In this document: positions 23,276 to 63,702 of the stretch, piece by piece | Numbering within the stretch: the first letter of the stretch is position 1 | Layout of the letters: every line of letters begins with the position of its first letter | IMG/VR virus record: IMGVR_UViG_3300043409_000956 | Coordinates: 1-64,000 of that record | DNA length: 64,000 nt | Direction: 5' to 3' (one strand) | Source: a virus | The notes under the pieces: model-generated | What the model was told of the DNA's origin: nothing | Seen by the model: only the letters and a program-made list of their open reading frames with translations | Database searches by the model: none | Position numbers and translations under genes: made by a program

Positions 23276-23854
23276 ATGAAACAATTATTTGAAGGCCTAG
23301 AAACAGGCGACTTAAAAAGATTAATACACACAGAACTGCACATTGACGAGTTTAAAAGCAAGTTGGGAGCGGATGAAGATACTGTGGTGATCAGTTTCAA
23401 AGTCAAGGGCAAAGAGCCTGCACAAGACCTAGTCAACTTTATTGAAAAAGGTTACGAGTGGGTTATTGATGCAGATGTCAGTTCAGGAGAAATGGACGAT
23501 GGCGATTTTATTGTTTTCATTGAATGTGATCGTACTCCCAAATTGGCACAAGAGCTTGTTGAAATGATGGAGGACATCATGAACATCACAGAACAAACGG
23601 CAGAAGATTGGCGTGTACGTTATTACACCAGCCAAGAAGATCACAAGCTGGATGTAGACAGCCTACGCAATTTAATTCCCAGTACTCCCGAAGAGTATGA
23701 ACGTAAATTTGGCCACAAAGACCAAGAGCACAAAGAAAAAGGTGACGACCGTGACCTGGACAACATGCGCTCTGCGGCCGGCATCAAAGTTAAAACCAAA
23801 GCACCCAAAAACGAATACACTGAAAGTCTAAGGATTGCGGCCGGTATTCGTTAA
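23276..23854 (+). CDS. Conserved hypothetical phage protein
   Basis: 192-aa acidic ORF. Confidence 0.7.
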   Translation: MKQLFEGLETGDLKRLIHTELHIDEFKSKLGADEDTVVISFKVKGKEPAQDLVNFIEKGYEWVIDADVSSGEMDDGDFIVFIECDRTPKLAQELVEMMEDIMNITEQTAEDWRVRYYTSQEDHKLDVDSLRNLIPSTPEEYERKFGHKDQEHKEKGDDRDLDNMRSAAGIKVKTKAPKNEYTESLRIAAGIR

Positions 23855-29463: not shown

Positions 29464-29504
29464 AAACCGGACTGGTTGACTCTGTCCGGTTTCTCGTTTA
29501 TAAT
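29464..29504 (+). promoter_or_regulatory. Terminator-like hairpin fused with a sigma70 promoter for dnaJ
   Basis: Stem AAACCGGAC/GTCCGGTTT; TTGACT (29476) in the loop, 17 nt spacer, TATAAT (29499). Confidence 0.72.
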
Positions 29505-29511
29505 AAGAGAT

Positions 29512-30354
29512 ATGACTCATTATGCCACATTAGGTGTTGCCGAAACAGCAACCGCAGACGAAATTAAACGAGCATATCGCGGTCTTGCATCTAAACATCA
29601 CCCCGACAAGGGTGGAGATACACAACGGTTCCAAGAGATACAGGCCGCATACGCTGTACTAGAAGACTCCAACCGGCGGGCACAGTATGATCAAGAGCGT
29701 CGTAATCCTGGTGGTGGTTTTAGATTTAATGTAAATGGTCAAGATTTCGATCAAATGCCTCCAGAAATGGAAAATATATTTAGAAACTTTGGATTTCCGG
29801 GCAGTCCGTTTGGGGCACAACGCCATCCTAGAAAGAATAAAGATCTAAGAGTTGAAGTAGTAATGCCCTTGGCTGAAACACTACAAGAACAAAAGAAAAC
29901 ATTGAGTGTACAGACCACAACAGGCCACAGGGAAACAGTAGAAGTAACAGTACCAAGGGGCATACACACAGGATCACAAATAAAATATCCCGGCCTGGGG
30001 GATAACATGTTCAACACACTACCACGTGGGGATCTTTATATTGTGTTTACTGTGCCACCAGATCCCAAGTTTAAAGTAGACGGCGTTGATTTAATATCTA
30101 GAGTAGCAATTAATTGCTTAGATGCCATCACAGGTGGGGTCACAGAGATTACAGGGTTAGACGGGCGTGTGTTTGAACTACAGATACCTGTGGGAACACA
30201 ACCTGGTACCCTGATGCGTGTGCGCGGAGAAGGATTGTATCATTTAAATCATACTGTTCGTGGCAATTTGTTGGTTGAAATTGTTGTTAGTGTGCCACAG
30301 AACCTGACTGAAACACAGTTAGAATTAATCCGACAAATTCAGTCTAACCAATAA
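29512..30354 (+). CDS. dnaJ: DnaJ/CbpA-type chaperone (no Zn finger)
   Basis: J-domain with HPD motif, G/F linker and C-terminal GDLY/GNLLV motifs. Confidence 0.92.
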   Translation: MTHYATLGVAETATADEIKRAYRGLASKHHPDKGGDTQRFQEIQAAYAVLEDSNRRAQYDQERRNPGGGFRFNVNGQDFDQMPPEMENIFRNFGFPGSPFGAQRHPRKNKDLRVEVVMPLAETLQEQKKTLSVQTTTGHRETVEVTVPRGIHTGSQIKYPGLGDNMFNTLPRGDLYIVFTVPPDPKFKVDGVDLISRVAINCLDAITGGVTEITGLDGRVFELQIPVGTQPGTLMRVRGEGLYHLNHTVRGNLLVEIVVSVPQNLTETQLELIRQIQSNQ

Positions 30355-30366
30355 ATATTTTAAAGG

Positions 30367-30395
30367 TTGCGTATGTACAGGATTTGCTGTATACT
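30367..30395 (+). promoter_or_regulatory. Sigma70-type promoter for the Clp ATPase
   Basis: TTGCGT-17 nt-TATACT. Confidence 0.55.
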
Positions 30396-30418
30396 TATAT
30401 CACAACAATATCATAAAC

Positions 30419-32698
30419 ATGATGACAATCCAACCGAATCCCGAAATTGAAGTAATTGTTAACTCAGCTATTAAATCAGCTAAAGAACTTAACCACGAAT
30501 ATGTAACCCTTGAGCATCTACTCAAAGCGGTTGTGTTGTACAAGCCATTTTACGAGCTTTGTCAAAATTTTGGTGCCGATATTGACAGCATGGTAATCGA
30601 GTTACATCAATATCTTGTATCACAAACATATCTGGTCAGCACAGAGAATGGCTGCGAGCCAAAGAAAACACATGCCCTGGAGCGTATGTTTAATCGTGCC
30701 TTTACACAGGTGTTGTTCAGTGGACGCACACACATACAAGTGATTGATATCTTCCTAAGTATGTCCAACGAGGCAAATAGTCATGCCGCATACTTCATGC
30801 TCAAATACGGTCTGGATAGACAAAAGTTAATTGAATTTTATAATGAGAATTATCAAGAGTCCAAACAAGTAAAGGCCGCTCGCAAGTTGCGGACACATGA
30901 TGTACTTGATGAGTATTGTACCAACCTCAGTGAGTCTGCCGCGGCCGGCAACATTGATCCAGTGATTGGTCGTGAATTTGAGATTAACGAAATAGCACAG
31001 GTCCTGGCCAAACGCAACAAGTCAAATATCTTAATGGTGGGTGATCCCGGTGTGGGTAAAACAGCCATTGCAGAAGGACTGGCAAGAAACATCTTTAATA
31101 AAGAAGTGCCCGACTACCTACATGATTACACAGTATTCAATTTGGACATTGGCAGTATCCTGGCGGGCAGTAAATACCGCGGTGAGTTTGAAGAAAAAGT
31201 CAAAGACGTTATTGAAGCATTGATTGCACGTGGCAAGTGTATCCTGTTCATAGACGAGGCACATCAAATGCAGGGCGCAGGCTCAGGCAGTCAAAGTAGT
31301 GTGGACTTTGGTAACATGATCAAACCTGCACTGAGCAAGGGACAGATCAAAGTCATTGCAAGTACCACGTGGGAAGAATACTCACAGAGCTTTGAAAAGG
31401 ATCGTGCGTTGATGCGTCGATTCCATAGACTGTCAATTGATGAACCTACTCCAGCAGTGGCCAAAGATATCTTGCGTGGCTTGCGTGGATACTTTGAAGA
31501 GTTCCATGGCGGCATTATTGATGATACAGCCATTGAAAGTGCTGTTGATCTAAGTGTACGCTATCAAACCGACAAGCGCCTGCCCGACAAAGCAATTGAC
31601 TTGATAGACAGCGCCTGTGCCAGAGTCAAGTTGGTAGAAAAAGAGTGGGTTGTGGCCAAGAGTCACATCATTGACACCCTGAGCAAGTTCACAAAGATAC
31701 CTGCAGATCAAATTGGTGCAGAAACTGTGCGTAGTTTAGATAACTTAGAAGGCAACATCAAAGCCAAGTTGTATGGACAGGAACAAGTTGTTGATACAAT
31801 CTTAGAACGTATATATGTCAGCCGGGCAGGACTCAAAGGCATCAACAAACCCATTGGTAGTTTTCTATTCATTGGACCCACCGGCACAGGTAAAACTGAA
31901 CTTGCTAAACTCCTGGCCGAAAACCTCGGGATGAAACTATTAAGATACGATATGAGTGAGTACCAAGAACGGCATTCGGCCAGCAAACTGATCGGTGCAC
32001 CCCCGGGGTATGTAGGCTATGAAGACAGCAACTTAGGTGGTGGCATGCTGATCAGCGATCTAGAAAAGAACACCAATGCAGTCATCTTGTTTGATGAAAT
32101 TGAAAAAGCACACCCAGACGTTAGCAATGTACTACTACAGTTGATGGATGAAGGTACGATTACCTCGAGCAATGGCAAAAAAGCAGATGCACGTAATGCC
32201 ATCATCATCATGACCAGTAACTTGGGAGCCGCAGACAATGAACGTAACAGCATTGGATTTAGCTCACCGGAAAAAACTGGTGAAGACGACAAGGCTGTTA
32301 AGGAATTCTTTAAGCCTGAGTTCCGTAATCGCCTGGATGGTATTTGTAAGTTTAACCGACTAGATAAGTTAAGTATTAAGAAAGTAGTTGCCAAGTTCAT
32401 TAACGAAGTCAACGACTTGTTAAGTGAAAAGACTATTAAGATTCGATTGACCGAGTCCGCTGTAGACTATTTGGCTGAAGTTGGATATGATAGCAAGATG
32501 GGTGCAAGACCACTAGGTCGTAAAATTAACGATTTGATCAAAGTACCGCTAAGTAAAAAGATACTATTTGAGCGTGTATCCCCAAATAGTAGTATTACTG
32601 TGGACTGGACTGGAACTGAATTTACATTCGATAGCAGAATTTGCATTGAAGCACCCCCCACTGTGGATGAGCATGGATACATCGTACTGGAAAAATAA
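30419..32698 (+). CDS. clpA: ClpA-like Clp/Hsp100 ATPase
   Basis: Clp N-domain; two AAA modules (GDPGVGKT, GPTGTGKT); KYRGEFE, LPDKAIDL, GAPPGYVG and an IGF loop; no ClpB middle domain. Confidence 0.92.
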   Translation: MMTIQPNPEIEVIVNSAIKSAKELNHEYVTLEHLLKAVVLYKPFYELCQNFGADIDSMVIELHQYLVSQTYLVSTENGCEPKKTHALERMFNRAFTQVLFSGRTHIQVIDIFLSMSNEANSHAAYFMLKYGLDRQKLIEFYNENYQESKQVKAARKLRTHDVLDEYCTNLSESAAAGNIDPVIGREFEINEIAQVLAKRNKSNILMVGDPGVGKTAIAEGLARNIFNKEVPDYLHDYTVFNLDIGSILAGSKYRGEFEEKVKDVIEALIARGKCILFIDEAHQMQGAGSGSQSSVDFGNMIKPALSKGQIKVIASTTWEEYSQSFEKDRALMRRFHRLSIDEPTPAVAKDILRGLRGYFEEFHGGIIDDTAIESAVDLSVRYQTDKRLPDKAIDLIDSACARVKLVEKEWVVAKSHIIDTLSKFTKIPADQIGAETVRSLDNLEGNIKAKLYGQEQVVDTILERIYVSRAGLKGINKPIGSFLFIGPTGTGKTELAKLLAENLGMKLLRYDMSEYQERHSASKLIGAPPGYVGYEDSNLGGGMLISDLEKNTNAVILFDEIEKAHPDVSNVLLQLMDEGTITSSNGKKADARNAIIIMTSNLGAADNERNSIGFSSPEKTGEDDKAVKEFFKPEFRNRLDGICKFNRLDKLSIKKVVAKFINEVNDLLSEKTIKIRLTESAVDYLAEVGYDSKMGARPLGRKINDLIKVPLSKKILFERVSPNSSITVDWTGTEFTFDSRICIEAPPTVDEHGYIVLEK

Positions 32699-35027: not shown

Positions 35028-35633
35028 ATGTTTATTTTTGAACTGTTTGAAGCAAAACCAGCCGAAAAGACTGTGGTCATATTGCCCGGTGGGTTCCATC
35101 CCTTTCATCCCGGGCACCTGAGTCTGTACACTTCGGCACAGAAGATGTTTCCTGGTGCTGATATCTACTACGCGGCCACCAACGACAAGGCCAATAGACC
35201 ATTTGACATTGCAGACAAAGCACGATTAGCACAAATTGCTGGTGTTCCCCCAGGACATTTTGTACAAGTTAAGAGCCCTTTCCAAGCCAAAGAAATTACC
35301 GCCAATTACGATCCAGCCACAACTGTATTAGTATTTGCCCGTAGTATCAAAGACCGAGATGAACCACCACACGCAGGTGGCGTCAAGAAGGATGGCAATC
35401 CTGCATACTTACAACCTTACAGTAAAAACCCTGCTCCAATGAGTCAGCATGGTTATATGGCTTACTTGCCTACTGTGGAATTTGCCGCAGGTCCCAGTGG
35501 CATTACTAGTGCTACGCAAATTCGTACAATGTGGCCCAAAGCCACACCAGAACAAAAAGCCGAGATTGTCAGCGACTTGTATCCCAAGAACCCCCGGGCC
35601 GCACATCAGATTCTAGACAAATACCTAGGATAA
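35028..35633 (+). CDS. Cytidylyltransferase-like (HxGH) nucleotidyltransferase
   Basis: PGGFHPFHPGH and SATQIR motifs. Confidence 0.78.
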   Translation: MFIFELFEAKPAEKTVVILPGGFHPFHPGHLSLYTSAQKMFPGADIYYAATNDKANRPFDIADKARLAQIAGVPPGHFVQVKSPFQAKEITANYDPATTVLVFARSIKDRDEPPHAGGVKKDGNPAYLQPYSKNPAPMSQHGYMAYLPTVEFAAGPSGITSATQIRTMWPKATPEQKAEIVSDLYPKNPRAAHQILDKYLG

Positions 35634-35918: not shown

Positions 35919-35947
35919 CATAAATATAGCATAACCAGGATTAGGAT

Positions 35948-36436
35948 ATGAAACCAACAGATTTTATTGTAGAACACAACCCATTTATAGCACAAGATGC
36001 CAATGAAATGCACGGCGACCACGAAGTACAAATGGCCCGAGCTGATTGTTATAATGCCGCAGACTATGCCATCAAACTACATAAGATTTTGCAAGGTATA
36101 AAAGAGACTGGACAACTAGAAGGTTGGGTCAGCGAAAAGATCACCCTGGCCAACGACTACTTGCGTACTGTTTATGAGTACTTGAGTTACGAAAATCGTG
36201 AACAAGAATCGGGCGCAATGCCTGCGTTTGCTTATGAATCTGCTGATCGTCGATTTGAAGAAGTTGTGGCAGAGTCTGCCAGTATTGGTGCCAGTGTCTC
36301 AGGTGGTATGGCCATTGGTGCAGTAGGTTCCGCAACTCCCATGCAACGCCGTGTCAAGCAAGAGTCAGCTGCCACTAAAAAGTATGGCAACGCAATGAAA
36401 ACAAAACAGCCCAAGATTGGTAAAGGCGTTTATTAA
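35948..36436 (+). CDS. Hypothetical late protein (possible internal head protein)
   Basis: TAAATA upstream; DHEVQMAR...LEGWVSEKITLA.DYL motif. Confidence 0.65.
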   Translation: MKPTDFIVEHNPFIAQDANEMHGDHEVQMARADCYNAADYAIKLHKILQGIKETGQLEGWVSEKITLANDYLRTVYEYLSYENREQESGAMPAFAYESADRRFEEVVAESASIGASVSGGMAIGAVGSATPMQRRVKQESAATKKYGNAMKTKQPKIGKGVY

Positions 36437-37068
36437 TGAGTATGCGTGATCTATTAACCCAGCTGTCAGCGTTGGAAGAAGGTTCCAAGGTTCGATTTGC
36501 CGGCGAGCCCAAACAACGGCCCGGCGATCAAGTGCGTGGCACAGATCGGGCCGTGGGTAAAAAAGGTCAACATCCATTTCAAAATCGCTTGGTTGGTGGT
36601 GAAAGCATCCTGCGTGATTTAGAAGCCGCATTGCACGAAACACCTGTTAGAGACTTGATGCGTGAGTATCAAGACTTTGTCAACGAAGCTCCTGTTCCTC
36701 CCGTGCCCGCTCCAGCAGGTCAACAACAAAATCCCAATCCCAATCCCAATCAACCAAATCAAGATCCAGCAATTTTAGCCGCACAGGCCAAACTTGCACA
36801 ACAACAAAAAACCAAACAAGATGCCGCATTGCAACAAGGTATCTCTAAATTAAAATCAGCTGGTGCTGATGTTGACATGCAGACCATGAATGACAAAAAC
36901 AATGATCTAGCGCCGGTATTAGCACCCATCATGAGCAACCCACAGCTACAAGGCAAATTCCAAGAATTAATCAAACAGGCCAATGCCGAGCAAAAGAAAC
37001 AACAACAAGCACAACAGACTGCCGTGCCCGCAGGTGCTGTTGGCGCACCAGTTCCAGGACAGAAATAA
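36436..37068 (+). CDS. Hypothetical Gln/Pro-rich protein (possible internal head protein)
   Basis: 210-aa ORF with low-complexity Q/P/N segments. Confidence 0.65.
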   Translation: MSMRDLLTQLSALEEGSKVRFAGEPKQRPGDQVRGTDRAVGKKGQHPFQNRLVGGESILRDLEAALHETPVRDLMREYQDFVNEAPVPPVPAPAGQQQNPNPNPNQPNQDPAILAAQAKLAQQQKTKQDAALQQGISKLKSAGADVDMQTMNDKNNDLAPVLAPIMSNPQLQGKFQELIKQANAEQKKQQQAQQTAVPAGAVGAPVPGQK

Positions 37069-37069
37069 T

Positions 37070-39604
37070 ATGAACTTATACGACCTATCTCATCCTAGCA
37101 AAAAGAAAAAACAACAACTAGCCATGGAAAGCCGCCTGGCTGAATTTGCACCACCTGGTGGAGATGATGGCGGTCCCGACGAAGATGAGATACTATTCAA
37201 ACTAGCCAAACAATGGTGGCTTGGCACTGAACAAGACATGATTCGTGTGGAACGCACACTAGCATCAATGGGTTGGGAAATTGGTGAAGATGAAGGCAGT
37301 TATGACGACGGTGGTGTGTTTGTTGTACGTGCCGGTGATGTCAACGGTAAAAGTTATCAGTCATGGCCGCATGAGGAATTAGTAACGGAAGGTGCCACGG
37401 TAACAACAACCCCTGGATCCGTTGAGCCAGGTGGTGCAGTAGACAACTTTAAACAACAGATGGCCAACAATACTGAACTTGCATATCAGAAAAAACAACA
37501 AGGCATGGCCGAAGGTGACACTGTAGTCAAACACCGTATCGGCCTAACTGTCACAGACCCCAACCACCCCATGGCGAGCAAGCGCAACGAACCCTTTCAA
37601 CGGACTGTGCGTGTGCCCGGCGATGATCCTGCCAAGGCCATCAATGCGGCCATTGCACACTATCGCCGCAAAGGTTACAAAGTGCATGACCATCACTACA
37701 TGGGCACAGTGGACTATACCATAGACGAAGCGGCACCCGATTGGTTGAGACGCACAGCCGGTGCGGCCACAGGTGCATTGGCCGGTGTTGGTGCAAGTTT
37801 CCCCGGTGCGGCCATTGCAGGTCCCATTGGTGGTGCAGTGGCAGGTGCATACGGAGCCAAAGCCGGATATGATTTAGGTGCCGATGCCGCTGACTGGGTA
37901 TATGACAAAGTCACTGGCGAACGAGTTCCGGCAGACAAGACCGAGGTTGATGAAGCATTAACAATGAAGCATCAGCGAGCTCATACAACTCAAAGACGCC
38001 CCGACATCAGCAATAGCCTGGCCGATAGAGACTTTGACATGTCAGAGAAACCCAATGTTGCCAAGAGTGCAGATGGTCACCCCACAGTCAAGTGGCGTCA
38101 TCATGGCCATGCCGGACATACTAGAGTTGAGCCCACACTGAACCCGACCACAGTGCAACGCAAGGACACAAGACCCATACCATCTTTCTTGAAGAAAGGC
38201 ATGGCGGAAGACGCAGAAAACTTTAACGGCATTGAGTTATCAATGAAGATACAACTCCAAGATGTTGAATATGTTGATGATGAAGATTATGATAATCAAG
38301 TAATATATGTCACTGCTAGTAGCAACGGTAGGGAACTGGGGCATGTGTTATTTTCGTTTGATGGTGAGTATTTAATGCCTCAGGATTTAGAAGTAGAAGA
38401 AAAGTATCGTGGACAGGGCATTGCTCAAACAATGTATGATTATGTAAAGAGCAAAGGATATAAAATACGCCGCAGTGGACAACAAACTGATGCAGGCGCT
38501 GGATTTTGGGACAAACATAAACCTGGAAAAAATGTCTGGGAACAAGGTGTGGCGGAAGGCTCACTAAACGAATTTGCACCAGATGGCTTTAACGGTGATG
38601 ACGATGAAGGATTCAGTCCGGAAATTGCCAAGATGGCGTATGATGCTGGTAGTGTCAAGGGCGTGAGCCTTGCTGACGGTGCTACATTAGCCAGAGCAAT
38701 GGCGATAACGGAGTGGGACAAACAAGACGGTGGCATTTACACCCAGCACTTTGCAAAAGGCTTCAAAGCAGGTCGTATGAATAAAATCAATCACCACAAT
38801 AAACAATACAATCTCAACTTGAAGTTGATGAAAGATGGTAGCATTAGACGCGGTCAGCAAGGTGTGGCGGAAGGTTCATTAGAAGAAGATGAATATGATA
38901 AAATGCTAAGAGATTTGTTGAAGGCAAGACCTGACTTAACTAAAAAATATGCCAAAGATGTTCAAAAGTCAAAAGATATTGAAAGTGGCAAAGAGTTAAA
39001 CAAACTTGTTAAAAAGAATCCTGGTGTATTGAAAACATACAGTGATGCTGTAAAGAGAGATAAGAAACTAGGTGTGGCGGAAGGTGGATACCGTCAAGGT
39101 TTTGCAGATCCCAACGCACCCAGTCTAGGTGGCAGTCGTAGAAAAGATGACGAAGGCAACTCAGAGTTTGATGACCGTCAGCGTAGACAAACCGGAATGA
39201 TATTCTACAAGGTTGACGACGCCGAACTAGCACAACAACTAGGACTCAAACAAACTCGTGCAGGCAAGTGGTATTTGCGTACAGGTAACAGACATGCACA
39301 ACAGACTGCTGACCGTGCATTTGGCCTGGGACGCATTTGGTATCCAAAGAATGAAACTGTAGAGTCAGAAGAGCTCGGCGAACTCAGCAATGAGTTGTTG
39401 GGTCGTTACAAAAAAGAACTAGGTATCCGTGCTAGTGCCGCAGATCGAGCAGGCAACTTTGACAAAGGTCACGAATACTTTAAAAAAATCAACCGAGCAA
39501 CTGTTCGCCAAGGTGATAATGATGCTCGCAGACACGCAGAAAAAGAAAACGATGTAATGGAAACTCGTTTAAATATGATGCGTAAGGCAGGATACGATCT
39601 ATGA
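37070..39604 (+). CDS. Modular polyprotein-like protein (about 844 aa) with glycine-zipper and GNAT acetyltransferase modules separated by G(V/M)AE repeats
   Basis: ATG at 37070; GNAT motif A VEEKYRGQGIAQTMY...QTDAGAGFW; five G(V/M)AE(G/D) junctions. Confidence 0.75.
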   Translation: MNLYDLSHPSKKKKQQLAMESRLAEFAPPGGDDGGPDEDEILFKLAKQWWLGTEQDMIRVERTLASMGWEIGEDEGSYDDGGVFVVRAGDVNGKSYQSWPHEELVTEGATVTTTPGSVEPGGAVDNFKQQMANNTELAYQKKQQGMAEGDTVVKHRIGLTVTDPNHPMASKRNEPFQRTVRVPGDDPAKAINAAIAHYRRKGYKVHDHHYMGTVDYTIDEAAPDWLRRTAGAATGALAGVGASFPGAAIAGPIGGAVAGAYGAKAGYDLGADAADWVYDKVTGERVPADKTEVDEALTMKHQRAHTTQRRPDISNSLADRDFDMSEKPNVAKSADGHPTVKWRHHGHAGHTRVEPTLNPTTVQRKDTRPIPSFLKKGMAEDAENFNGIELSMKIQLQDVEYVDDEDYDNQVIYVTASSNGRELGHVLFSFDGEYLMPQDLEVEEKYRGQGIAQTMYDYVKSKGYKIRRSGQQTDAGAGFWDKHKPGKNVWEQGVAEGSLNEFAPDGFNGDDDEGFSPEIAKMAYDAGSVKGVSLADGATLARAMAITEWDKQDGGIYTQHFAKGFKAGRMNKINHHNKQYNLNLKLMKDGSIRRGQQGVAEGSLEEDEYDKMLRDLLKARPDLTKKYAKDVQKSKDIESGKELNKLVKKNPGVLKTYSDAVKRDKKLGVAEGGYRQGFADPNAPSLGGSRRKDDEGNSEFDDRQRRQTGMIFYKVDDAELAQQLGLKQTRAGKWYLRTGNRHAQQTADRAFGLGRIWYPKNETVESEELGELSNELLGRYKKELGIRASAADRAGNFDKGHEYFKKINRATVRQGDNDARRHAEKENDVMETRLNMMRKAGYDL
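37498..39085 (+). repeat. Dispersed in-frame direct repeat AGG(T/C)(G/A)TGGC(G/C)GAAG, five copies
   Basis: AGGTGTGGCGGAAGG is identical at about 38545, 38860 and 39070; variants AGGCATGGCGGAAGA at about 38197 and AGGCATGGCCGAAGG at 37501. Confidence 0.85.
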
Positions 39605-40032
39605 CACTATCAGAAACTACAAAAATAGCATTTGCTAGCGAATATACCTTTTATTTGAAGGCACACAACTTTCACTGGAATGTGGAAGGTGCTGACTTCC
39701 TAGAACATCACCAGTTGTTTGGCATGATCTACGAAGAAGTATACGGTGCCATTGACGATTTTGCAGAAAAGATTCGCGGCATCGGTAGTTATGTGCCAGC
39801 CAGCTACACCAGATTCAGTCAATTGAGTCAAATTGGTGACGAGACCAACATACTCAGCCCGGGTGCCATGTTGCATGAACTATCAGAAGACAATGAAAAA
39901 ATGTTGTTGGTACTGAAGATGGCTTATGATGCAGCCGAACAAGCCGGCGAGCATGGATTCTCAAACTTCTTAGCTGAACGGTTAGATGCACATCGTAAAC
40001 ACGGTTGGATGTTGAGAGCAAGTCTAAAATAA
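39601..40032 (+). CDS. dps: Dps/ferritin-like DNA protection protein
   Basis: KAHNFHWNVEG.DF...H.LF..IYEE...D.FAEKIR and H.K..WML motifs. Confidence 0.92.
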   Translation: MTLSETTKIAFASEYTFYLKAHNFHWNVEGADFLEHHQLFGMIYEEVYGAIDDFAEKIRGIGSYVPASYTRFSQLSQIGDETNILSPGAMLHELSEDNEKMLLVLKMAYDAAEQAGEHGFSNFLAERLDAHRKHGWMLRASLK

Positions 40033-40733
40033 TGTTGCCCATCATAGCAACATTGGTGATGACACATATCACCATCATATGTGTCACAGTTTTCCTACAC
40101 CGCGGACAAGCACATCGCGGATTGATATTTCATCCTGTACTTAGTCACTTTATGCGAGCCTGGCTTTGGCTAACAACCGGAATGGTCACTAAACAATGGG
40201 TAGCCATACATCGTAAGCATCATAGGTTCAGTGATGTTGCGGGTGACCCACATAGCCCACACGTATATGGAATTGGACGAGTATTGTTTAAAGGAGCAAT
40301 GTTATATCATGAAGCAAGCAAAGATACGGACATGGTTAATACATATGGTGCTGGTACTCCTGCTGATTGGATGGAGCTTCACGTATACCAGCCTTACTCT
40401 AGACTTGGCATTGGCATTCTCTTTGTGCTAGACGTCTTGGTGTTTGGATGGTGGGGTCCTGTAATTTGGGGCATCCAGATGATATGGATACCGTTTTGGG
40501 CAGCCGGAGTCATAAACGGCGTTGGTCATTGGATTGGGTATCGTAATGGTGAAACCAAAGATCATAGTCGTAACATCGTGCCTTGGGGCATTGTCGTTGG
40601 TGGAGAGGAGTTGCACAACAATCACCACCTGAACCCAGCAAGTCCCAGGCTCAGCAAGACCTGGTTTGAATTTGATGCAGGCTGGATGTACATAAATATT
40701 TTTAAATCGCTTGGACTACTTAAAATTAAATGA
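40032..40733 (+). CDS. Acyl-lipid/acyl-CoA delta-9 fatty acid desaturase
   Basis: Histidine boxes HRGQAH, HRKHH and HNNHH; DPHSP; GEEL. Confidence 0.92.
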   Translation: MLPIIATLVMTHITIICVTVFLHRGQAHRGLIFHPVLSHFMRAWLWLTTGMVTKQWVAIHRKHHRFSDVAGDPHSPHVYGIGRVLFKGAMLYHEASKDTDMVNTYGAGTPADWMELHVYQPYSRLGIGILFVLDVLVFGWWGPVIWGIQMIWIPFWAAGVINGVGHWIGYRNGETKDHSRNIVPWGIVVGGEELHNNHHLNPASPRLSKTWFEFDAGWMYINIFKSLGLLKIK

Positions 40734-61617: not shown

Positions 61618-62412
61618 ATGAACCTAATAAATTTACTTAAAACCGGCTTTGTAATACTTTTGTACACCCTGTGTAACATGGGGAATTGTAACAGTTTACA
61701 ATTTATAGATGCGCCTAAACGTTTTTTTGGCAGTAAAGATCCCACTACCATTTACACTTTTAGTAACTCAAATGCTCGGGCTACAATAATATTCTTTCCT
61801 GGTGGTGACGGTAGTTTTAAAATAAACGAAAACATAAAGAATCACAAAGGCCTGCCGCGGATGCTACAAATGATTGCTGATGCAGGTTATAATGTAGTGT
61901 TTGTAGATAGTCCGTATCCGTTATTGGACTCTGGATCGGGCGGGTATCCCGCAATGCGAGATTCCGGCGATCATCTAGATAGAATGGATTCTGTATTAAA
62001 GCATCATCAAGGGCAAAATTTACCAATCTGGCTAATGGGTCATAGCAACGGGTCGTTTACTGTAAGTTCCTTTTTTTATCGCTTGCAAAAAGAACATAGA
62101 ACAAAAGAAATCAGCGGAATAATTCTGTCAGGCACACGCAATGTTGCAAAGTTTCAAGATTCAATGGATACTAATGTTATATTTGTGCATCATGAAAAAG
62201 ATGGATGTTTTAACACATTATATCGAGATGCTGTAAACAATTACAACAAAGTAAAATCGTTTAACCAAGGACCAACTACGTTTATAACTATCACCGGTGG
62301 CACTAGCGGTAGTATCCCCGGTGGTCCCAGCGGCCCCTGCTATTCGGGATACCATATGTATTATGATGCTCATACCGAAACTGTGCAAAATATTTTATCT
62401 AAATTACCGTAA
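61618..62412 (+). CDS. Alpha/beta hydrolase
   Basis: FPGGDG, nucleophile elbow GHSNG, HHEKDGC and a C-terminal His. Confidence 0.78.
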   Translation: MNLINLLKTGFVILLYTLCNMGNCNSLQFIDAPKRFFGSKDPTTIYTFSNSNARATIIFFPGGDGSFKINENIKNHKGLPRMLQMIADAGYNVVFVDSPYPLLDSGSGGYPAMRDSGDHLDRMDSVLKHHQGQNLPIWLMGHSNGSFTVSSFFYRLQKEHRTKEISGIILSGTRNVAKFQDSMDTNVIFVHHEKDGCFNTLYRDAVNNYNKVKSFNQGPTTFITITGGTSGSIPGGPSGPCYSGYHMYYDAHTETVQNILSKLP

Positions 62413-62421
62413 GGAGATGTA

Positions 62422-62880
62422 ATGAAGTGGTTACTTGACTTTTTAGAAAAGCATGGTCGCAAACGCATAGTCATGGATCGTGTCAATAACGAGCCATACT
62501 TAGAACGCTACTATCTTTTCTTAAAGGATCGTAAGCGTTTTCCCTTTAATGTGTTTTTACACAAATTCTTAAAATCAGATCCAGATGATGTGCATGACCA
62601 TCCTTGGCCCTATGCCACAGTTATTCTCAAAGGTGGGTATTGGGAATGGACCCCACAGTTTGACAGCTCGGGTAAAAAGATTAATGAAATTGCCAATTGG
62701 CGTGGTGCTGGACACTTTCGCGTTTGCAGTGCCAACAGTTATCACCGCATCGAACTTGATCCTACTGTAGAGTGTTGGACCTTGTTCATGCCTGGACCAC
62801 AGACTCAAGATTGGGGATTTCTAACTCGCACGGGTTGGGTACAACATGAACAATATTTAGATGCTAGGGCTGGCAAATGA
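62422..62880 (+). CDS. Cupin-fold phage protein
   Basis: HDHPW...GGYWE...HRIEL...WTLF motif. Confidence 0.7.
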   Translation: MKWLLDFLEKHGRKRIVMDRVNNEPYLERYYLFLKDRKRFPFNVFLHKFLKSDPDDVHDHPWPYATVILKGGYWEWTPQFDSSGKKINEIANWRGAGHFRVCSANSYHRIELDPTVECWTLFMPGPQTQDWGFLTRTGWVQHEQYLDARAGK

Positions 62881-63197
62881 TGCAACTGCCGCCAGGTGTT
62901 ACAGTCAACTACTTTATTGCCATTGAGATTGATCGATTAACTGAAGAAATGGTCGACTGGTTTGAGATGATAGGCGGCCAAGTTGGCAAAGAAATCAAAT
63001 GGACCAGGCGCGGTAGTACTATCAATTTGCCCGTTGTGCAATATGGCCAAGGCAAGCCCAGTTACTACAGACAAGATGGATCAGGCAGTGTGCGTCTAAA
63101 TTTCCACGGTGATGATGCCAGTGCGGCCAGTATGTTTATATTGAAATTCATGGAACATGTTCAACAACACAATTTGAAAGAGGTACACTTTGCATAA
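62877..63197 (+). CDS. Hypothetical protein
   Basis: 106-aa ORF. Confidence 0.65.
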   Translation: MMQLPPGVTVNYFIAIEIDRLTEEMVDWFEMIGGQVGKEIKWTRRGSTINLPVVQYGQGKPSYYRQDGSGSVRLNFHGDDASAASMFILKFMEHVQQHNLKEVHFA

Positions 63198-63702
63198 AGT
63201 ATATTATACACCAGACGATGTTCGGTATTGGTTACACAACATCATCAGAGACATGACCGCACACAACTGGCGACCCGACTACATTGTGGGCATTGGTCGA
63301 GGTGGATTGATTCCTGCTACCATGTTGAGTCATTATATGAATGTGCCCATGCAAACACTTGATGTTAGCCTGCGTGACAGCACAGTTGGACCAACCAGTA
63401 ACTGCGGCATGGCCGAAGATGCATATGGTGGCGGCCGTGTGTTTCACCGTAAAAATATATTGGTTGTAGATGACATCAACGACTCAGGTGCCACACTTGA
63501 ATGGATCAAAAACGATTGGCCAGCTTCGTGTATGCCCAACGATACTGCGTGGCAAGACATTTGGCACAGCAATGTTCGCTTTGCTGTGATGGTCAATAAT
63601 CAGACTAGTGCGTTCAAAGATGCTGACTATGTGGGTGCTCATATTAACAAACTAGAGCAAGATATTTGGTGTGTTTTTCCCTGGGAAGAATGGTGGAGAT
63701 AA
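63190..63702 (+). CDS. Purine phosphoribosyltransferase (Gpt/Hpt-like)
   Basis: GIGRGGLIPA, PRPP-binding LVVDDINDSGAT and VFPWE motifs. Confidence 0.88.
   Translation: MHKVYYTPDDVRYWLHNIIRDMTAHNWRPDYIVGIGRGGLIPATMLSHYMNVPMQTLDVSLRDSTVGPTSNCGMAEDAYGGGRVFHRKNILVVDDINDSGATLEWIKNDWPASCMPNDTAWQDIWHSNVRFAVMVNNQTSAFKDADYVGAHINKLEQDIWCVFPWEEWWR

Follow-up and report, generated by a model that had tools for sequence, protein, structure and literature searches.

An in-frame repeat joins exchangeable cassettes in a viral polyprotein gene and may double as a head protease site

Introduction

The subject of this report is a single gene in a 64,000-nucleotide (nt) stretch of viral DNA (the window hereafter), which corresponds to positions 1-64,000 of a 93,092-bp contig (IMG/VR record IMGVR_UViG_3300043409_000956). 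CheckV estimates the contig to be 26% complete, implying a genome of ~350 kb, and DNA of this contig is found in freshwater and lake metagenomes. As an initial annotation of the sequence had described, the gene is one open reading frame (ORF) of 844 amino acids (aa) composed of unrelated short modules that are joined by G(V/M)AE(G/D). The same annotation had proposed that this junction is both a crossover site for the shuffling of modules and a cut site for a phage head protease. Comparison with related viral genes strongly supports the view that the junction is a recombination joint, while its reading as a protease site, and that of the modules as cargo delivered to the host, are plausible.

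The polyprotein gene and its cassettes

An alternative, longer in-frame ATG for this ORF exists at 36983 and overlaps the gene upstream; the start at 37070 is supported because orthologues begin MNLYDL. The annotated chain of modules holds, with one revision: what had been taken for a first module is a leader followed by an acidic cassette, which ends in the degenerate junction LVTE↓G, and by a 40-aa mini-cassette (the arrow marks the boundary after the Glu). The features of the gene are listed below, together with the positions at which homology breaks in L005 and L006, two related loci that are syntenic with the window on both sides at 78-83% DNA identity.

37070..39604, + strand: cassette polyprotein gene, stop codon included (844 aa), defined by the ORF and a junction scan
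37070..37129, + strand: N-terminal leader MNLYDLSHPSKKKKQQLAME (20 aa), kept in orthologues and ending LAME↓S at residue 20
37130..37393, + strand: cassette 1a, an acidic GWEIGEDEG module (88 aa, isoelectric point (pI) 4.1) ending in the degenerate junction LVTE (37382-37393)
37133..37156, + strand: RLAEFAPP motif, a second type of joint, where L005 and L006 homology breaks
37394..37513, + strand: 40-aa mini-cassette GA..TTPGS..GGAVDNFKQQMANNTELAYQKKQQGMAE, found more widely in the family than any other piece
37502..37516, + strand: junction 1, GMAEG (aa 145; GGC ATG GCC GAA GGT), diverged copy
37514..38209, + strand: cassette 2 (232 aa, pI 9.2), comprising a small domain at the N-terminus, a glycine zipper and a basic tail
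38198..38212, + strand: junction 2, GMAED (aa 377; GGC ATG GCG GAA GAC), where L005 homology stops
38210..38557, + strand: cassette 3 (116 aa), compact GNAT-like module, predicted acetyltransferase, with an RGQGIA motif
38546..38560, + strand: junction 3, GVAEG (aa 493; GGT GTG GCG GAA GGC), canonical copy
38558..38872, + strand: cassette 4 (105 aa), beginning SLNEFAPDG
38561-38584, + strand: SLNEFAPD, a recurrence of the RLAEFAPP motif found by repeat comparison
38861..38875, + strand: junction 4, GVAEG (aa 598), canonical copy
38873..39082, + strand: cassette 5 (70 aa), Lys-rich and predicted to be helical
39071..39085, + strand: junction 5, GVAEG (aa 668), canonical copy, where L005 and L006 homology restarts
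39083..39601, + strand: cassette 6 (173 aa), basic
39345/39370, + strand: indel in cassette 6, where L005 and L006 have an extra 65 aa after ESVAE↓A and this copy reads NETVES

The predicted products of the individual cassettes range from 4 to 25 kDa, with pI values of 4.1-9.3.

The junction repeat is conserved as DNA

A mismatch search of the window bears out the annotated claim that a 15-mer is identical at three junctions and has near-copies at two others. Exact copies of AGGTGTGGCGGAAGG are found at 38545, 38860 and 39070 and three-mismatch copies at 37501 and 38197; its six matches in the window compare with 0.91 expected from shuffles, none of 100 of which reached six. When the scan was extended to the whole 93-kb record, exact copies proved to be limited to the three junctions of the polyprotein gene, the record also holding one copy with a single mismatch that reads GVAEG in a minus-strand gene. 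The idea of a genome-wide repeat was rejected: a 14-mer version occurs 1-8 times per genome, with nearly all copies inside array genes. A GMAED at 63178-63699 lies inside a phosphoribosyltransferase and is probably a chance match. The second recurring motif that had been annotated, LAEFAP/LNEFAP, is real (37142-37158 and 38570-38586).

Codon choice at the junctions is highly skewed. The GCG Ala codon, present in four of the five junctions, is indeed uncommon here (9% of the genome's Ala codons), and GTG accounts for 24% of Val codons. Given the peptide GVAE, the probability of the codon set GGT GTG GCG GAA is 0.0069 from codon usage, and therefore that of three identical copies by chance is ~3e-7. 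This bias is a property of the family as a whole. In 64 junctions from 32 non-redundant genes, Val is encoded by GTG in 92% (19% background), Ala by GCG in 84% (8% background), the first Gly by GGT in 84% (46% background) and the last Gly by GGC in 73% (31% background), a single string, GGTGTGGCGGAAGGC, accounting for 27 of the 64. The bias extends to the residues next to the junction, with Gln encoded by CAA in 51/53 cases and Ser by TCN in 18/19. The complete relative G001 provided two controls: V-A-E elsewhere in this genome, the scaffold protein included, uses ordinary codons, GTG GCG GAA being restricted among V-A-E sites to four cassette junctions, and conserved N-terminal leaders are free to vary at silent sites. 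The repeat itself is not free at silent sites, and the proposal of the initial annotation survives this check. In form it is a non-palindromic direct repeat of 15-20 nt that is read in frame, and no attC-like inverted repeats were found at the junctions.

Cassettes are exchanged at the junctions

An exhaustive HMMER search with the polyprotein returned 1785 representative proteins at E ≤1e-3 (955 at ≤1e-10), which range from 132 to 1319 aa and in which the matched cassettes occupy variable positions; the matches listed mostly cover one or a few cassettes (e.g. residues 375-498, 490-604, 668-844 or 20-110). The best 150 representatives contain 288 strict junctions, as against 1.3 expected from composition, with the consensus (E/K)-Q-G-V-A-E-G-(S/L). 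Once the host ORFs of 43 related viral loci had been split at the junction and the pieces clustered, the same cassettes were seen to recur beside different neighbours. Cassette 5 is exactly 70 aa long in ten loci, where it is flanked in at least six different ways, the GNAT-like cassette measures 113-116 aa in five loci, and seven cassettes of the polyprotein are found independently in other proteins.

Module content and order thus vary between orthologous loci, and homology breaks at the junctions, which is the outcome that the initial annotation had anticipated. L005 homology inside the gene extends from 37142 to 38210 (junction 2) and restarts at 39066 (junction 5), the three intervening cassettes being replaced by others, and this locus has 247 extra bases at the RLAEFAPP joint. 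L006 has cassette 4 upstream of the mini-cassette and therefore a permuted order, and the arrays of two close relatives (L011 and L019) differ in the position of one 99.6%-identical cassette. Within the gene, 72/103 alignment ends fall within 10 nt of a junction, as do 32/50 distinct breakpoint coordinates, compared with 10.3% expected (binomial P 7e-20). In contigs from other lakes, the alignment stops, skips or rejoins at these same coordinates; one contig skips from 38217 to 38540, so that the GNAT cassette is removed, and another jumps from 38875 back to 37433. Joints at 38562/38855 in other contigs were set aside, as one side consists of just 19-20 letters and may be the repeat itself. 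A recurrent breakpoint at 39345-39370 lies off the canonical junctions and looks like a junction that decayed after a deletion.

Single cassettes are shared between genomes that have otherwise diverged. In L007 and L009, the DNA of cassette 3 is 83-85% identical, and the identity is confined to the stretch between junctions 2 and 3. Positions 38855-39084, which comprise cassette 5, are 97-98% identical in seven of the aligned contigs (97-99% among the copies), and outside this cassette the same contigs are either unalignable or ~65% identical (64.6% in the DNA polymerase gene); the identity starts and ends within the junction 15-mers, and an exact 38-mer from cassette 5 matches nine other viral contigs, whose flanking sequences are unrelated. 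Judging from these alignments, the pattern is one of recent horizontal movement of a single in-frame cassette. The copies of cassette 5 in L011, L013-L017 and L019 show 1-3 changes in 195 nt and are more conserved than the flanking junctions and far more than any backbone gene, giving the cassette the look of a unit that is spreading now.

No dedicated machinery for this movement has come to light. A scan for tyrosine integrase (PF00589), which matched all control genomes, gave no match in this contig, in a second partial contig or in two complete relatives, and no recombinase or homing-endonuclease family was found among the neighbouring genes in library scans. Because no integrase was found, general recombination is the likely driver, and RecA/UvsX-like genes are present in the complete relatives G001 and G002. 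The comparison with integrons made in the initial annotation holds as an analogy; integrase, attC-like sites and cassettes that are ORFs are all missing, the cassettes here being in-frame segments. Breakpoints, permutations, a near-identical cassette in diverged genomes and frozen silent sites are direct observations, and homology-driven recombination is the mechanism that we infer for the shuffling.

The junction peptide, T4-like leaders and the head protease

Junction-like DNA was also searched for in family genes as near-matches to the 15-mer, with no peptide required. All 97 near-matches are in the GVAEG frame, none being in the other two frames or on the opposite strand. Positions 1-2 of the Glu codon are changed in 0/97 copies and the first Gly is almost invariant; the junction Val alternates with Met, and the residue after the Glu (P1') is G, D, A, N or S. 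These substitutions fit the hydrophobic-x-Glu rule of T4-type prohead proteases. The T4 prohead protease gp21 cuts after Glu (PMC9026906, PMC5694885), the capsid-targeting sequence of T4, MKTYQEFIAE, is cut after its last Glu (PMC8442874) and such sequences load foreign proteins into the T4 head (PMC9026906, PMC5694885, PMC8442874).

Leaders of this kind are frequent in the family: 48/145 N-termini match M-x(2-4)-[DEQ]-h-h-x-E, with MRAQEFIAE, MRAKEFITE, MKPTDFLTE and MKINEILTE as examples, and QEFIAE is common to the first of these and the T4 leader. At least eight genes of G001 have T4-like leaders; the pattern is rare in the present contig, where genes just upstream of the polyprotein carry it. 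The GNAT cassette comes after GVAE↓ in 39/69 proteins and directly after the terminal Glu of a leader, in the same register, in 10/69 (e.g. MRAKEFITE↓GQEHFNGIDIS). The mini-cassette, too, follows either a junction or a leader, as in P0055 (MIVTDLFE↓GAPISGD) and in the relative P0002, where the leader known from the polyprotein ends LISE↓G and is joined straight to the mini-cassette. Since the GNAT cassette and the mini-cassette share this register, the junction Glu occupies the place of a known cleavage Glu.

A Peptidase_S77 protein of the gp21 family is encoded by both complete array-carrying relatives (367 and 374 kb), with scores of 99.5 and 88.7 bits; in G001 it lies at 62222-62683. These genomes also have a head module of the T4 type, in which the gp22-like scaffold shows a conserved KLVAEG and the propeptide of the gp23-type capsid protein gives way to the mature fold after LLAE↓S or MLAE↓N. 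A Pfam scan found no peptidase family in the polyprotein ORF or in eight long relatives.

What the cassettes may encode

The best characterized unit is cassette 3, which the initial annotation had called a complete GNAT domain, a description that holds in part. Its GNAT-like fold and motif stand, and the Pfam gathering score is not reached in this copy, with scores just below threshold of 19.7 bits (cut-off 20.7) and 20.6 bits (cut-off 27); homologous GNAT cassettes in relatives pass the threshold at 34.8-39.9 bits. The conserved Gly and Ala of the RGQGIA acetyl-CoA motif are invariant in 20 homologues. In the AlphaFold model of the cassette (predicted local distance difference test score, pLDDT, of 75.5), the junction forms a low-confidence tail that is disordered, and in a Foldseek search all top matches in the Protein Data Bank (PDB) were GNATs (E 3e-3, probability ≥0.96), with template-modelling (TM) scores of just 0.37-0.48 because the unit is short. 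On this modelling evidence, cassette 3 is a compact GNAT-like unit and a predicted acetyltransferase.

Structure prediction module by module succeeded for cassette 3 and gave no usable fold for cassettes 2, 4 and 6. ESM Atlas held no usable relatives of cassettes 2 and 6 (all query TM <0.35), and cassette 4, modelled by AlphaFold with 19 homologues, reached a pLDDT of 46. Neither a PDB sequence search nor PADLOC returned matches, and PHROGs yielded a single weak match, to a family of unknown function. The small N-terminal domain of cassette 2 has a relative in a structural-region protein of the cyanophage BUCT-ZZ01. Arrays of relatives contain a nucleotidyltransferase, further GNATs, HAD-like modules and a weak ParB-like module. 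The mini-cassette (37394-37513 and 29/43 related loci) is always preceded by x-x-E↓GA(P/S/T) and is too small for an enzyme; its 16-residue core GGAVDNFKQQMANNTE is almost invariant, even in arrays without GVAEG junctions.

Gene neighbourhood and expression signals

Three genes upstream of the polyprotein are related to the arrays:

35028..35633, + strand: gene with leader MFIFELFE↓A and an HxGH nucleotidyltransferase-like domain
35948..36436, + strand: gene with leader MKPTDFIVE↓H, with an ATAAATA at 35920, ahead of the operon
36436..37068, + strand: gene translationally coupled to the polyprotein gene, its N-terminal part matching the start of the L020 array

The nucleotidyltransferase domain of the first of these genes is the N-terminal module of arrays P0042, P0053 and P0101, and arrays P0074, P0100 and L014 each open with a homologue of the second. 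The third contains, at 36658-36687, an internal MREYQDFVNE that shares five identical and three conservative positions with T4 MKTYQEFIAE, which suggests that a former gene start has been fused into the middle of the protein. A possible very short leader, LFE↓G, is found in the gene at 23276-23854, which begins MKQLFEGLE... (first 40 residues read).

A second cluster of family genes occupies the far end of the contig on the minus strand (G000 88608-93092; L054 5608-10090). Two adjacent GTG-start genes at 88.6-91.1 kb share an identical 29-nt leader (MKIKDIIVES), one gene of the cluster has a weak ParB_N-like domain (DGHHRFW), and the third encodes at least 665 aa with DUF6934 and a PAVAED site.

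Other neighbours are of a different nature. Downstream, genes for a ferritin/Dps-like protein (66 bits) and a fatty-acid desaturase (46 bits) at 39601-40733 follow the end of the polyprotein gene in translational coupling and keep the same position in L005 and L006. At 29476-32698, a full DnaJ (J domain and C-terminal domain) lies beside a 759-aa ClpA/B-like ATPase (phrog_4871, 790 bits), the two forming a chaperone pair.

The T4 late promoter was considered as an expression signal and rejected, the late box TATAAATA not being enriched (one copy in the window, fewer than chance). ATAAATA occurs 11 times in the window, in each case on the coding strand and in most cases a short way ahead of a gene start (e.g. 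1359, 6785, 26075, 30351, 35920, 43821 and 48900), one site preceding the DNA polymerase gene; by its placement it is probably a promoter element. Contigs from an RNA library cover parts of the polyprotein gene, which is not proof of transcription.

A proposed mechanism and its alternatives

The scenario that we consider probable, with appreciable room for doubt, is that the polyprotein is a chain of head cargo with cassettes that are swapped at a DNA adaptor and cut apart by a gp21-type prohead protease. A giant lake-water phage related to T4 would use the gene to encode its head cargo as a polyprotein, in which seven small cassettes that are unrelated to one another come after an N-terminal leader and a single adaptor, (Q)-G-[V/M]-A-E↓G, stands between them. 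As DNA, the ~20-nt core of this adaptor, CAAGGTGTGGCGGAAGGC, would be a patch of identity common to all cassettes and to many phages, at which the general (UvsX/RecA-type) recombination of the phage may cross over; whole cassettes would therefore be gained, lost, reordered and handed from one co-infecting phage to another, the reading frame being kept each time. As a peptide, the adaptor would be a hydrophobic-x-Glu site for a gp21-type prohead protease. The leader would carry the chain into the core of the assembling head, the protease would cut after each junction Glu, and the freed modules would remain beside the DNA until infection, when they would pass into the host as the internal proteins of T4 do. 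The two halves of this dual role, first put forward in the initial annotation, have fared differently: the recombination half has gained strong support from the breakpoints and silent sites, while the peptide half (loading, cutting and delivery) is one that we infer from the logic of the sequences. A broader claim, that a universal in-frame adaptor, invariant down to its silent positions in giant T4-related phages throughout a lake community, permits recombinase-free, integron-like exchange of protein segments between any co-infecting relatives as well as protease release of each cassette for delivery to the next host, is offered tentatively, as somewhat less likely than not.

Several points weigh against the head-cargo scenario. 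The polyprotein gene sits among DnaJ, ClpA/B-like, ferritin-like, desaturase and DNA polymerase genes, not head genes, and is coupled in translation to the ferritin-like gene downstream. Its own leader (MNLYDL...) belongs to a second class with no Glu at position 8-10. No prohead protease gene was found in the 93-kb contig, which has no head module because it is incomplete (26%). For the DNA half, 15-20 nt is short for efficient homologous recombination, and strong selection, as opposed to recent transfer, could account for part of the high identity of cassette 5. To speak of 'effectors' is a guess, because the GNAT-like fold is the sole recognisable one among the cassettes of the ORF, some of which could be core or charge-balancing filler. 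Cultured phages offer little to compare: tblastn of the ORF against 50,697 cultured-phage records gave one weak match, covering 8% of the query, in cyanophage BUCT-ZZ01 (ON615601), whose structural region encodes a distantly related protein of several modules (UTS51990.1, 612 aa) that includes relatives of two cassettes, and a canonical family member searched against the same records had no match.

Since the DNA-level evidence is the strongest part of the case, the junction could be purely a recombination joint, GVAEG being what the DNA adaptor happens to encode and the chain remaining uncut like beads on a string; the ESM Atlas model of the whole protein as loosely connected units (predicted TM score 0.21) would be in accord with this. 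However, a pure DNA site should vary equally at its 15 positions and turn up in any frame or between genes, which is difficult to reconcile with the fixed first two positions of the Glu codon, the nearly fixed first Gly, the alternation of Val and Met, the single frame of all 97 copies and the way in which the junction Glu and the Glu that ends a T4-type targeting leader stand in for each other, and we regard this explanation as unlikely. There is even less reason to favour a purely translational role, in which the frozen codons would serve translation or the mRNA (e.g. a programmed interdomain pause) and breakpoints at the junctions would be a by-product. The junction codons are rare (GCG and GTG, see above) and lie between units that fold independently, as a pause would have it, but pausing needs no identical 15-mer across phages of 36-42% GC and leaves unexplained both the permutation of cassettes and how diverged genomes come to share a 97-99%-identical cassette with limits that coincide exactly with the 15-mer; this is very improbable.

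The fate of the protein could also differ from the one proposed. Cutting at the junctions by some other protease in the cytoplasm, with products that act in the producing cell and are neither packaged nor injected, would suit a gene set amid metabolic, chaperone and replication genes, coupled to a ferritin-like gene and provided with a leader that is not of the canonical capsid-targeting type. It seems improbable given that neither the ORF nor the eight long relatives have a peptidase domain, that many family leaders are nearly identical to the T4 capsid-targeting sequence and that the site fits the gp21 rule, a protease of this type being encoded by the complete relatives. Alternatively, the array might be mainly structural, a disposable filler of the core or inner body that is chopped by the protease, its pieces being expelled or balancing the charge of the DNA. 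Such a role would agree with the multiple cuts made in gp22, gp67 and gp68 of the T4 core (PMC9026906), with the alternation of acidic and Lys-rich cassettes, with the lack of a recognisable fold in most of them and with a mini-cassette that could hardly be an enzyme. Against it stand the enzyme-like cassettes (GNAT here; nucleotidyltransferase, HAD-like and ParB-like in relatives) and a rapid turnover and horizontal spread of single cassettes that resemble those of arms-race cargo, so that we give this possibility little credence.

Relation to known systems

A close parallel to the proposed head-cargo chain is with the internal proteins of T-even phages (IPI, IPII, IPIII and Alt). In both cases, leaders ending in hydrophobic-x-Glu head diverse, fast-changing small proteins, predicted product sizes are similar (8-25 kDa here), and the complete relatives have the gp21-type protease and the gp22/gp23 head module. 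The T4 proteins, however, are products of separate genes with one cut beside the leader, whereas here the cargo units are chained behind a single leader and the repeated internal site is also conserved as DNA; cleavage and packaging, which have been shown for T4, are predictions here.

At the DNA level, the PeSL cassettes of T4-type phages (Arbiol et al. 2010, PMC2839356; PMC4122927) are similar in that a short DNA motif flanks variable modules and that the ends of insertions, deletions and replacements between related phages fall in the motif. Phage homologous recombination on small patches of identity was proposed to drive them, and PeSLs were likened by their authors to integrons without an integrase (PMC2839356; PMC4122927). 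Their motif differs in being intergenic, ~100 bp long (promoter and stem-loop) and in moving whole genes, whereas the present one is ~15-20 nt of coding DNA that moves protein segments and is translated, in the GVAEG frame, into a functional-looking peptide. Shuffling within a gene, at or near short conserved motifs between variable segments, is known from the gp38 adhesins of T-even phages (PMC3157838). There, the glycine-rich motifs build the structural core of a single folded domain, in a set order that does not tolerate the loss of any of them, whereas the units described here are independent and can be deleted, added or reordered.

Polyvalent proteins (Iyer et al. 2017, PMC5512222) also bring together many unrelated domains in one polypeptide, with the look of conflict-type cargo, and are believed to travel with the DNA and to be split into individual units by processing (PMC5512222). 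They differ from the present family in bringing a peptidase of their own for this processing (MPTase and others) and in lacking a uniform linker, whereas here the scan for peptidase domains found none, a single strict linker recurs and is conserved as DNA, and the modules are much smaller. Integron arrays share with this family exchangeable units that are bounded by a recurring site and drawn from a pool common to the community, but in the arrays described here no IntI-type integrase and no attC-like folded site were found, and the units have no start or stop codons of their own and are expressed as one protein. A full-text literature search found no published description of such a GVAEG-linked, prohead-protease-cut polyprotein. 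The proposed design brings together three themes known from T4-type phages, namely leader-directed loading with gp21 processing of diverse internal proteins, PeSL-type shuffling, and exchange at conserved motifs inside a gene. The new element is the chaining of cargo units in frame behind one leader by a single adaptor that is conserved both as peptide and as DNA.

Significance

If the proposed mechanism is correct, these phages could evolve their injected protein cargo quickly, one short sequence securing both exchange in frame and release in the capsid, and the paradigm of the T4 internal proteins would extend from single genes to shared, reshuffled arrays. The family would then represent a very large pool of candidate modules for host takeover or anti-defence (at least 1785 clusters at 50% identity), and the junction offers a ready rule by which its proteins may be split into functional units for screening. 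In addition, a single construct designed with the leader and junctions could serve to bring several proteins into T4-type capsids.

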